This document shows, one piece after another, positions 61,101 through 63,534 of a stretch of 64,000 bases of DNA (the stretch's first letter is position 1; each line of letters opens with the position of its first letter). The stretch spans positions 12,174,567-12,238,566 of the forward strand of contig CM120644.1 in assembly GCA_051362555.1 (NCBI GenBank). The letters run 5' to 3'. The notes under the pieces were generated by a model. That model did no database searches. It was given only the letters and a program-made list of their open reading frames with translations, and was not told where the DNA came from. The DNA is from Lingula anatina (taxonomy: Eukaryota > Animalia > Brachiopoda). Position numbers and translations under genes: made by a program.

Positions 61101-63534
61101 CTTTGCCAGCTATTTTTGTTGCATCGGCATATTCTGTCCATCTGGACTGAAAGTATGACCACTCTTCGCTGGTACCGCAGGCTGATATTGTGGGCCGCTT
61201 GACTTTCTCCACTTTGGCTGCAGTAACAGGAGCGTTGGTATGAACAGAGCTGTGTGTGGTGAGTAGGGCTGCTACGATAGTGGCGTCAAGGTCATCTGTG
61301 GTGTAGTCACAGCCTTCTATTGGGCACTGGACTGCCGGCATGCTGTCAGGTATGGGATAGCGATCATAAATAAGTACACTGTACTATTTGTCTTTAAGCG
61401 TTTATTGGTCCAACTTGACAATGATCGCTATCTGAAACGGAAGATAAATTACATAAGTCTACATAAATAATAATCCTATAGTAGACTACAGCAGTTAGAA
61501 ACCAGATTTTGTGATCAAGACAATTTGGAGCTGCCCTCTGACCTCTGACCTTCTTATTCACAGCTAACATGCAACCAATTGACCTTGATGACCTTAACAG
61601 TGAGAAGAGATACTTAGGTCAGCAAGCTTACAAGGATTCAAAGCTAGCAAATGTGATGTTCACGTTAGAATTGGCCCGTAGACTACAAGGAACAGGTGTC
61701 ACGGTGAACTGTTTGTGTCCAGGTAAGTGAAGCCAAGGCCTGTTTTGCTGAATAACCTAAGTTTAAGCACAGTGTTACCAAAGTATTATGTTTCACAAAG
61801 AACCCTAACAGTTTTCTACCTTGCTTTTTTTTTCTTTTTTTTTTAATTCATGTGGCTAAGCCTGAAACAGTAGAGCAAATTTTTGTGATCTTGACAATGT
61901 TTTGTATTCTCAGAAGTCCCCAGTACACAATTTCCCATACATTTGTGAAATGAAATGCTGTAAAAAGCCTTTAAAAAGTTGGTTTTATGACATAAGCCAT
62001 CTATGTTAAGCAGTGTAAGTAAAACCTGAAAAGGCCATTAAATTTACGAAAATGTTTTTTAATAAATCCAAAATACAGACTTGTTTTAAAATAAAAGTAG
62101 TTCATGTGAGAGAGGGAAAGGAAGAGACACTATGACAAAGATGCCCCACCATGTCTGAGATATTCAAGATATTGATCAACCAATGTGATTGTCTCATACA
62201 TTTCATGTCACAATTAAGTCTTCAAATTGTGTATTTCAGAAACCTAAACGTAAAGCATTTTGGAGTTTTCACTCATCCTAGTGGATACATGAATTTTATC
62301 ATTTATATGTTTAGATCTTTTAAAATACGAAAGGCATTGAGTGCATTTTAAACAGCAAATAATAAAATAATTAAATAATTAAAATTTGTTTTCCTGAAAA
62401 TTTAAACAAATTTTCCTTTATCAGTAAGGTATACCCTCTCATCTGTTCAGATAATAAACATCCATTTACTTTATTTTCTGAGTTTTAAATTGTTGTAAAA
62501 GTGTTGAAATATCAAAGCATTTTTTTTTTGCTTTATAAAGATCTAATGCTCATTTTGTGCCTTTAAAGATCTTAAAACCTCTTCTTTTGTAGGCTTCATA
62601 CCAAACACAGAATTTTTGAGGAACAACGGCACATTCATACGTGGCTTTTGTAGATACATTATTGGTGGGCTCATGCGACCGTTTTTAAAGATCACGCGGA
62701 CGGTGGAAGAGGGAGGACAGGCCATTGTACAGCTAGCTGTGGATGAGAAACTGGCAGGTATGGATATATTCAAAAATATTTTTTAAAAAATGAATGTATA
62801 ATGTTCTCCAAAGACATGTTGTAATAGGTGTACATGCAGGAGTGTACTGAATCTGGGAAACTTGAAAAGTGAGCTTTTTATGTCTCCTTGATCTAAGTTG
62901 AAGTAAGAATTAGGATATGTCCGCATTAGTAATGTAACAGACACAAGTGTGATGTTTGAAATTTGGCCGGTGATGGCCGCTTTTATTGGAAGTCGCATTA
63001 ATAAAAAGAAATAAAGCGTATTACTGATAAACATTGATAATGTTGATAGATGATATAAACTTAGTGTGCGCCAGAAGTATCAACATTTAAATTATAATTC
63101 CAGACAAATAGTGCACACATTTCAAATTGTGGGGTTGCAAAGAGGCCAACCGTCTTTTTTTTTGTCAGAAAGTATATCTTTTTGAGTAATTGAAAATGAT
63201 AAACTTTGAAAAGAAAAAGCTAAATTATAGGTCCTGGAGGAAAATTCTAGTGGAATGAGTGAAGCGTTTGAAAATAAATTCAATGACGACTGAAAGAGTT
63301 CACCCAAATTTATCAAATAAAGATAGAAAATGAAGTTAATCTCACAATAAAAAAAATGGTATCACAGTTCTGGTAAAGGTTGGCTGGATACTTTCAGGCC
63401 AGACGGGGAAGTTCTTCAGAGACTTTGTAGAGGATAAAGTATCTGTGGAAGCCACGAAGGAGCAAGATCAACAACGTCTGTGGCAGATCAGTGAGAAAAT
63501 GGTTGGATTGGAATCATATCAGGGCATGGATTAA
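54685..63534 (+). CDS. Short-chain dehydrogenase/reductase, retinol dehydrogenase 11-14-like, ~314 aa, 6 coding exons
   Basis: Exons are 54685-54870, 55268-55439, 55762-55887, 61564-61722, 62593-62757 and 63398-63534 (945 nt, all GT-AG, in frame). Motifs [42 protein letters not shown] (YxxxK), LCPGFI, GKFF, RLWQISE. Confidence 0.93.
55058..55101. repeat. (TG)n microsatellite
   Basis: Pure TG run in SDR intron 1. Confidence 0.95.
56114..56227 (-). repeat. 3' LTR (114 bp)
   Basis: Direct repeat of 61367-61480; preceded on the minus strand by the PPT. Confidence 0.95.
56414..58168 (-). CDS. Gypsy integrase region (HHCC, DDE core, Pro/Thr-rich tail), out of frame with the upstream polyprotein
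   Basis: HSAHQG...[27 protein letters not shown]; terminal [16 protein letters not shown]; no chromodomain. Confidence 0.9.
58153..61341 (-). CDS. Gypsy Gag-protease-RT-RNase H polyprotein
   Basis: Double Zn knuckle CGYCGKTGH...[13 protein letters not shown]...C, protease [19 protein letters not shown]...APQGY...KCVDD, RNase H ATDWS...EGEALA...VDHKPL...AADCVSR. Confidence 0.95.
61356..61366 (-). other. Non-tRNA primer-binding site complementary to the element's own LTR
   Basis: Minus-strand TGATCGCTATC directly follows the 5' LTR and is the exact reverse complement of GATAGCGATCA inside that LTR (61422-61432). Confidence 0.75.
61367..61480 (-). repeat. 5' LTR (114 bp)
   Basis: Minus-strand TATAGG...CTTATTTA. 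Contains an Inr-like TCAGAT, AATAAA (61401-61406) and a terminal hairpin (61368-61389). Confidence 0.95.

Follow-up and report, generated by a model that had tools for sequence, protein, structure and literature searches.

Probable self-primed reverse transcription in a Ty3/Gypsy lineage of marine invertebrates outside the chromoviruses

How does a retrotransposon begin minus-strand synthesis when no tRNA-type site follows its 5' long terminal repeat (LTR)? This question is raised by a stretch of 64,000 nucleotides from the brachiopod Lingula anatina (GCA_051362555.1, contig CM120644.1, positions 12,174,567 to 12,238,566; the whole stretch is hereafter called the window), the minus strand of which carries a 5.37-kb Ty3/Gypsy LTR retrotransposon encoding Gag, protease (PR), reverse transcriptase (RT) and RNase H (RH), followed by integrase (IN). 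In an earlier note on this DNA, the 5' LTR was said to be followed directly by TGATCGCTATC rather than by a primer-binding site (PBS) starting with TGG, with the Gag ATG 25 nt away, and the sequence agrees. From this copy and its relatives, we consider it probable that the window element primes minus-strand synthesis with its own RNA, as Tf1 does, within a lineage that does not belong to the chromoviruses. The pairing of LTR and primer site, its fixed position relative to the LTR end, the covariation, the TA...TA ends and the lack of a chromodomain can be read directly from the sequences. The trait likely arose apart from Tf1/sushi, and we infer an independent origin. The features concerned are as follows.

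61481..61485, minus strand: target-site duplication (TSD) TCTAC, 5 bp, with the other copy at 56113-56109
61367..61480, minus strand: 5' LTR, 114 nt, TA...TA ends
61433..61450, minus strand: pyrimidine-rich stretch ending TTTCA(G), from the sequence and the motif position in relatives; function putative
61433, minus strand: A, predicted position +1 if the motif is an initiator; alternatively, 61433-61432 as the AG of a splice acceptor
61421..61432, minus strand: self-primer arm GATAGCGATCA(T), from pairing and covariation
between 61422 and 61421, minus strand: predicted cut in the arm
61401..61406, minus strand: AATAAA, 3' of the arm and within the loop; one base differs in the 3' LTR copy
61368..61389, minus strand: U5-end motif AAATAG...CTTATTT, a weak hairpin; the motif recurs in relatives
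61356..61366, minus strand: primer-binding site TGATCGCTATC, adjoining the LTR end, no TGG

The 11-mer had also been described as the reverse complement of an LTR stretch, and this complementarity is exact: TGATCGCTATC (61366-61356, minus strand) matches 61432-61422, and the stem reaches 12 bp with the last LTR base (arm 61432-61421). GATAGCGATCA occurs exactly twice in the 64 kb, at 61432-61422 on the minus strand and as its complement at 61356-61366, and two matches were observed in none of 100 shuffles. The chance of the anchored 12-bp match is about 4e-6 at LTR base frequencies, and the fold of 61432-61356 gives z = -4.2. No tRNA gene was found in the 64-kb window. The finer structures that the earlier note had proposed for the loop were retained in part. 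The TTGTC/GACAA stem folds in the window copy and is absent from consensus structures. For the terminal hairpin, stability does not exceed that of shuffles (z ~0), and a strong U5 hairpin finds no support; a 4-bp stem at the U5 end is kept in the consensus structure of one sub-group.

Such a match might have arisen by chance, or by a local inversion or duplication in the window copy, in which case its siblings would carry a normal TGG site; the window 3' LTR, which mismatches the primer site at two bases, could be taken in favour of this view. The relatives bear on it directly. A Gag alignment search gave 80 of 152 confirmed metagenome matches and 8 genome loci, together 88 loci; a Gag start could be located in 79, on which the counts rest. 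Families were defined at 80% Gag identity, and the 67 positive loci (window included) fall into 38 families. Named relatives come from Mytilus, Saccostrea, Mercenaria, Mizuhopecten, Haliotis, Elysia, Diadema, Acropora, Actinostola, Palaemon and Lamellibrachia. A stem between the post-LTR sequence and an arm 32-81 nt upstream was observed in 66 of the 79 relatives, and the 13 without it comprise eight that are cut at a contig end or miss the LTR, three with junction deletions, one with an interrupted LTR and one without a recognisable LTR. No TGG site was seen among these 13 wherever the LTR end is visible, and a primer site starting with TGG was found in none of the 38 families. Thus, relatives with a normal TGG site, or without complementarity between LTR and PBS, which the earlier note had named as outcomes that would speak against its proposal, are not what was observed.

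Controls and independent markers of the LTR end give the same picture. The full pairing score of 11/11 was reached by 58 of 80 loci, and control windows gave it in 1 of 217 and 6 of 164 cases. A second LTR copy marks the LTR end in 22 elements; 20 of these pair at 11-12 of the 12 positions counted from the last LTR base, and the remaining two carry junction deletions. The TA...TA ends claimed for the element, a reading that is ambiguous from the window copy alone, proved to be lineage-wide in the two-LTR relatives, together with a 5-bp TSD. A further element, L135, found through its RT and lying outside the earlier set, has a 16-bp stem. No relatives by Gag or RT were found in viral contigs, and a search of the ESM Atlas returned generic RT clusters only. 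As a separate observation, the primer-site or arm motif occurs a second time further upstream in the LTR of L013, L015, L018, L023, L033 and the L021 family.

Compensatory covariation of PBS and LTR in relatives had been set beforehand as a test, and pairing is indeed kept with different sequences. Across the 38 families (window included), 37 distinct primer-site 11-mers were observed; the mean stem length is 12.9 bp when arm and site come from the same family versus 4.4 bp between families, and a length of 9 bp is attained by 5 of the 1406 cross pairs. With RNAalifold, the stem is recovered in sets of 22 and 12 sequences, and the predicted pairs show both-sided changes in 8 of 11 and 15 of 19 cases. 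As a signal in the sequences, this covariation is real, lineage-wide and well supported. Chance or a local inversion is already refuted by it; in addition, the reads and contigs from other individuals do not list the 3' LTR variant, and the two arms are identical to each other in the 18 other elements in which both were read. An accident confined to the window copy is therefore scarcely credible.

Pairing might also be a structural element, involved in packaging, in shielding the 5' AATAAA or in translation control, while a host RNA fragment acts as the primer. The position of AATAAA in the enclosed loop agrees with such a role, but a handful of conserved host RNAs could not match all of the 37 distinct 11-mers present in 38 families, and an Rfam search returned three weak matches, all far below the gathering score. 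Moreover, every family has its stem end precisely on the last LTR base, the point at which minus-strand synthesis must start. Ordinary RNA helices contain G-U pairs, but here these are almost absent. At positions 3-11, with one best member per family, the 342 cells comprise 337 Watson-Crick pairs, 2 G-U pairs and 3 mismatches, a count biased upward because the stem-junction finder and the choice of the best member both favour pairing; over all 67 loci, the 603 cells comprise 592 Watson-Crick pairs, 3 G-U pairs and 8 mismatches. We regard a purely structural role as very improbable.

Herein, we propose the following scheme for self-priming. RNase H cleavage frees the primer in Tf1. By analogy with that element, transcription would start at the A of TTTCAG (61433), and the first 12-13 nt of the RNA would fold onto the primer site. 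The RNase H of the element would then cut after A61422, leaving a primer of 11-12 nt with its 3' end adjoining the last LTR base, and this primer would later be copied back into the primer site during plus-strand synthesis. Such copying back would explain why arm and site are nearly pure Watson-Crick. Since the stem ends at the last LTR base and the polypurine tract (PPT) adjoins its LTR, no spacer would be expected at either end. Within one family, L024 carries a new base in both LTR arms and the old base in the primer site, and both are changed in L027, the order of change that copying from arm to site predicts. In one contig and in reads (runs X21 and X1; window 61356-61357), the LTR with 10-11 nt of the primer site is joined to unrelated DNA, which is what copying of the primer onto the cDNA end, as in Tf1, would be expected to produce; this junction comes from a single locus and could be an internal deletion. 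In the X21 junction, the next base would pair with A61433, unlike the genomic site. Taken together, the near absence of G-U pairs, the order of change in L024 and L027 and the junction with foreign DNA suggest that the site receives a copy of the arm, in the manner of a primer.

The 5' border of the arm could be a transcription start or a splice acceptor. A YAG lies 9-29 nt from the arm's 3' end in 35 of 38 families (141 of 256 windows in the background), the usual distances being 13 or 15, and the YAG-at-13 class is concentrated in the Gag clade of the window (L075 is not in the Gag tree). In 11 families with the initiator-like TCAGT, the stem halts exactly at the A (A paired in 10 of 11, the preceding base in 0 of 11), as for an initiator. 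In the 19 families outside this group, window included, the motif reads TTNYAG, and the two positions preceding N are T in 16 and 17 of 19. In these families, AG is depleted in the 18 nt upstream (4 versus 13.3 in shuffles, p = 0.001), pairing drops to background at the AG (14, 8, 6 and 2 of 19), and branch-point-like motifs are slightly enriched (9 of 19, p = 0.08). The LTR upstream of the motif measures only 33-51 nt in the window, L019, L059, L060 and L069. This border looks like a splice acceptor. Self-priming might therefore operate with an arm whose border in the window sub-group is a 3' splice acceptor: the RNA would arise either from a host transcript through cis-splicing or through trans-splicing of a leader, after which the arm would be cut as a primer.

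Against this, the YAG was picked by position, so the presence of AG cannot count as an independent finding. In the TCAGT group, pairing extends through the A, and in L009, L010, L020, L082 and L135 a YA without G stands at the stem end; these families favour a start site across the whole lineage and fit an initiator throughout. No spliced reads at 61431-61432 were found at low depth, and the window copy runs antisense to the gene that hosts it. An intron within the LTR was considered and rejected, as there is no room for it (25-31 nt from the nearest GT, by eye); pairing of the sequence after the primer site with the LTR start was likewise absent by eye. We hold a splice acceptor at this border to be unlikely. 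A bolder version would make the window sub-group promoterless, with a U3 of 33-51 nt consisting of branch point, pyrimidine tract and 3' splice acceptor, an RNA joined by splicing to host exons or to a spliced leader, a primer made of the 11 nt that follow the joint, a TA-specific integrase and an origin apart from Tf1/sushi; this combination is speculative and rather improbable.

Elements with TGG sites served as the outgroup for self-priming. Several GTDB bacterial metagenome-assembled genomes contain animal LTR retrotransposons through host contamination (L081-L088 and genomes G001-G007, with 72 RT matches in G001). From the same contaminated assemblies, 20 stretches were taken, and nine gave true LTR pairs. 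All nine, which are distant (24-36% RT identity), have TG...CA ends and TGG within 2 nt of the LTR, and self-pairing spans 4-7 nt in the eight of them that were measured. In a midpoint-rooted RT tree, from which loci without one long RT segment are left out, 20 self-pairing sequences form one clade (support 0.88) together with one protein lacking DNA context; this clade nests in a wider group of relatives without DNA context, and the TGG elements lie outside. Among solved structures, the best relative is Ty3 RT, and the bit scores are 102 to Ty3 RT versus 179 to a TGG-site element. Among more distant relatives, an N-terminal SAM domain on Gag was seen in the proteins P0401, P0416 and P0425 (45-52% RT identity).

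Several points weigh against self-priming as proposed here, in addition to the biased cell count and the single-locus junction. First, the transcript start and the RNase H cleavage are steps that we infer, and the 139 RNA reads on the 5' region form no pile-up and are largely antisense host intron signal. In the 19-family group, pairing lends A61433 no support as position +1. Second, the RT tree contains no named Tf1/sushi, chromovirus or Mag references, and DNA context for the sister groups at 44-66% RT identity was found in none of 151 + 63 + 5 + 3 genomes. Third, the passages on Tf1 in PMC10085805 and PMC6317226 describe a "pretzel" of three duplexes, one of them joining the LTR loop to the sequence that follows the primer site; such a downstream duplex is unsupported in the 38 families (mean z +0.2, with 1-2 of 38 below -1.5). 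Finally, the 3' LTR of the window copy differs from the 5' LTR at two neighbouring arm positions (56173, 56172) and at one base in AATAAA (56150), and with a mismatched 3' LTR arm and a split pol this copy is probably not active. Reads and contigs from other individuals list neither variant, and their LTR arms agree with that of the 5' LTR, so the variants look private to the window copy.

The remaining features of the element and its surroundings are given below.

58153..61341, minus strand: ORF1, 1062 aa, encoding Gag, protease, RT and RNase H; Gag start ATG at 61341, 25 nt past the 5' LTR end
60567-60442 and 59118-59104, minus strand: Cys-His knuckles of Gag and KCVDD of RT
56414..58225, minus strand: integrase frame (H2C2 and rve), no chromodomain
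56228..56236, minus strand: polypurine tract GGGGGGAGA, adjoining the 3' LTR; the same motif is found in relatives
56114..56227, minus strand: 3' LTR, 114 nt, with 3 differences from the 5' LTR, 2 within the arm
55888..61563, plus strand: host intron (GT...AG) of a short-chain dehydrogenase gene, from spliced reads, with loose ends at 61562

The LTRs, TSD, PPT and the order Gag-PR-RT-RH-IN place the element in Ty3/Gypsy. A frameshift splits the integrase frame from ORF1 in the window copy, and relatives have a single ORF of about 1560-1700 aa. The LTR ends at 61367 and 61480 are also the points at which reads of other insertions depart from the window sequence. In summed contig depth (run X9), the LTR (61367-61480) stands several-fold over the internal region 61200-61350 and far over the flank, which suggests that solo or related LTRs are numerous and full copies scarce; depth is a poor measure of copy number. 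The element lies antisense inside the host intron 55888-61563; the host gene, identified from its exon translation and an adh_short match on an upstream exon, spans 54556-61760 on the plus strand. Elsewhere in the window, two fibrinogen C-terminal domain genes in inverted orientation (34166-34684, minus; 45103-45564, plus) are 81% alike over 407 nt. Long inverted-repeat pairs at 1786-5782, 39287-42478, 21552-22097 and 44495-44820 (223, 174, 108 and 93 nt; 93-99%) are likely DNA transposons or MITEs, and tandem units of about 161 nt occupy 1-747.

Self-priming has been treated as the hallmark of one chromovirus sub-lineage. If our proposal is true, a large lineage without a chromodomain and without the pretzel, ranging over molluscs, echinoderms, cnidarians, annelids and crustaceans, would imply that RT-RNase H switched from tRNA priming to self-priming more than once. 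The lineage would also provide a natural series, with predicted primer lengths of 12 and 14 and dozens of sequences, for how RNase H measures its cut. Because of their TA ends and the lack of a tRNA site, these elements are under-annotated by finders based on tRNA sites and on TG...CA ends, and elements independent of tRNA would be expected to escape control by tRNA fragments.

How does this lineage compare with known systems? In Tf1, as described in passages of PMC10085805 and PMC6317226, the RNA 5' end pairs with the primer site and serves as the primer, and primer-derived tails are found on cDNA. As far as these passages describe them, Tf1, Tf2, Tj1 and Tosmo of the Tf1/sushi group share with the window lineage a primer site directly after the 5' LTR that is complementary to an LTR stretch predicted as the RNA 5' end, a minimum stem of about 11 bp and the Ty3/Gypsy domain order. 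Unlike Tf1/sushi, the lineage has no chromodomain, either in the window ORF (Pfam) or in any of 30 full-length relatives (E 0.1); none was found in 13 more distant relatives either (E 0.01). Its LTRs end TA...TA with a 5-bp TSD, whereas those of Tf1/sushi end ...CA, its RT motif is C[VI]DD in 116 of 120 proteins, and its hosts are marine invertebrates. The KCVDD motif, the two Cys-His knuckles and the absence of a chromodomain had all been reported correctly for the window copy. In other words, the lineage probably works like Tf1, to which its relationship appears to be only a distant one, but fails membership of Tf1/sushi by its lack of a chromodomain, its ends and the missing pretzel duplex.

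A Gag with a double Cys-His knuckle is a Mag trait, and the pattern was observed in 92 of 120 proteins, the first knuckle having a longer spacer. The label "Mag-like" given in the earlier note is only a loose fit, as the named Mag A/B/C references have a different RT in the rows seen. Short LTRs, a single ORF and marine invertebrate hosts are shared with the Mag lineage and MolGy clades in the parts of PMC6238403 and PMC2774666 that describe them. Unlike the window lineage, Mag A and Mag C have LTRs that end TG...CA (PMC6238403, PMC2774666, same parts), and the RT motifs differ from those of Mag, Gulliver, Hydra2-1 and SURL in the rows seen of the published alignment. A "Mag C-clade, SPM/Hydra2-1-like" identity was dropped, the C-clade being the SURL group and the named RT rows being different.

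An independent origin of self-priming in an animal Gypsy lineage, as first proposed for this locus, is likely; an origin outside the chromoviruses is not unprecedented. In the relevant passages of PMC6317226, self-priming is predicted from LTR/PBS complementarity for the plant Ty1/copia TAR lineage (Houba, Osr-1), which likewise lies outside the chromoviruses and differs from the window lineage in its Copia superfamily, its plant hosts and its unrelated domain order. No description of self-priming in a non-chromovirus animal Gypsy element was found in the open literature, subscription journals and Repbase Reports being outside this coverage.

The closest published elements are from the tubeworm Lamellibrachia luymesi. 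The supplement of Aroh and Halanych 2021 (PMC8220671) tabulates the Gypsy elements LLGY5, 6, 14, 25, 32, 58, 85, 112, 115, 135, 155 and 173, and in the rows seen all 12 have TATA ends, a 5-bp TSD, LTRs of 117-191 bp and a length of 5.2-5.6 kb. By eye, they share the RT signature KTKC[VI]..., and from these sequences and table rows they very probably belong to the same lineage; four sister elements (KERCIDD; LLGY23, 74, 100 and 120) have TGCA ends (PMC8220671, same rows). C[VI]DD is absent from the named Gypsy references in the rows seen of the RT alignment of that paper, and one BEL element has it. Its Gypsy elements are placed, in the passages seen, under CsRN1, Gmr1, Mag and five new families, none of them chromovirus, with three unnamed families inside Mag; the family of the 12 elements is given only in figures. 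These passages are silent on LLGY primer sites, and the PBS is mentioned twice, in the introduction. Thus, the lineage and its TA ends are already in print in the PMC8220671 supplement, which in the rows seen gives no account of its priming.

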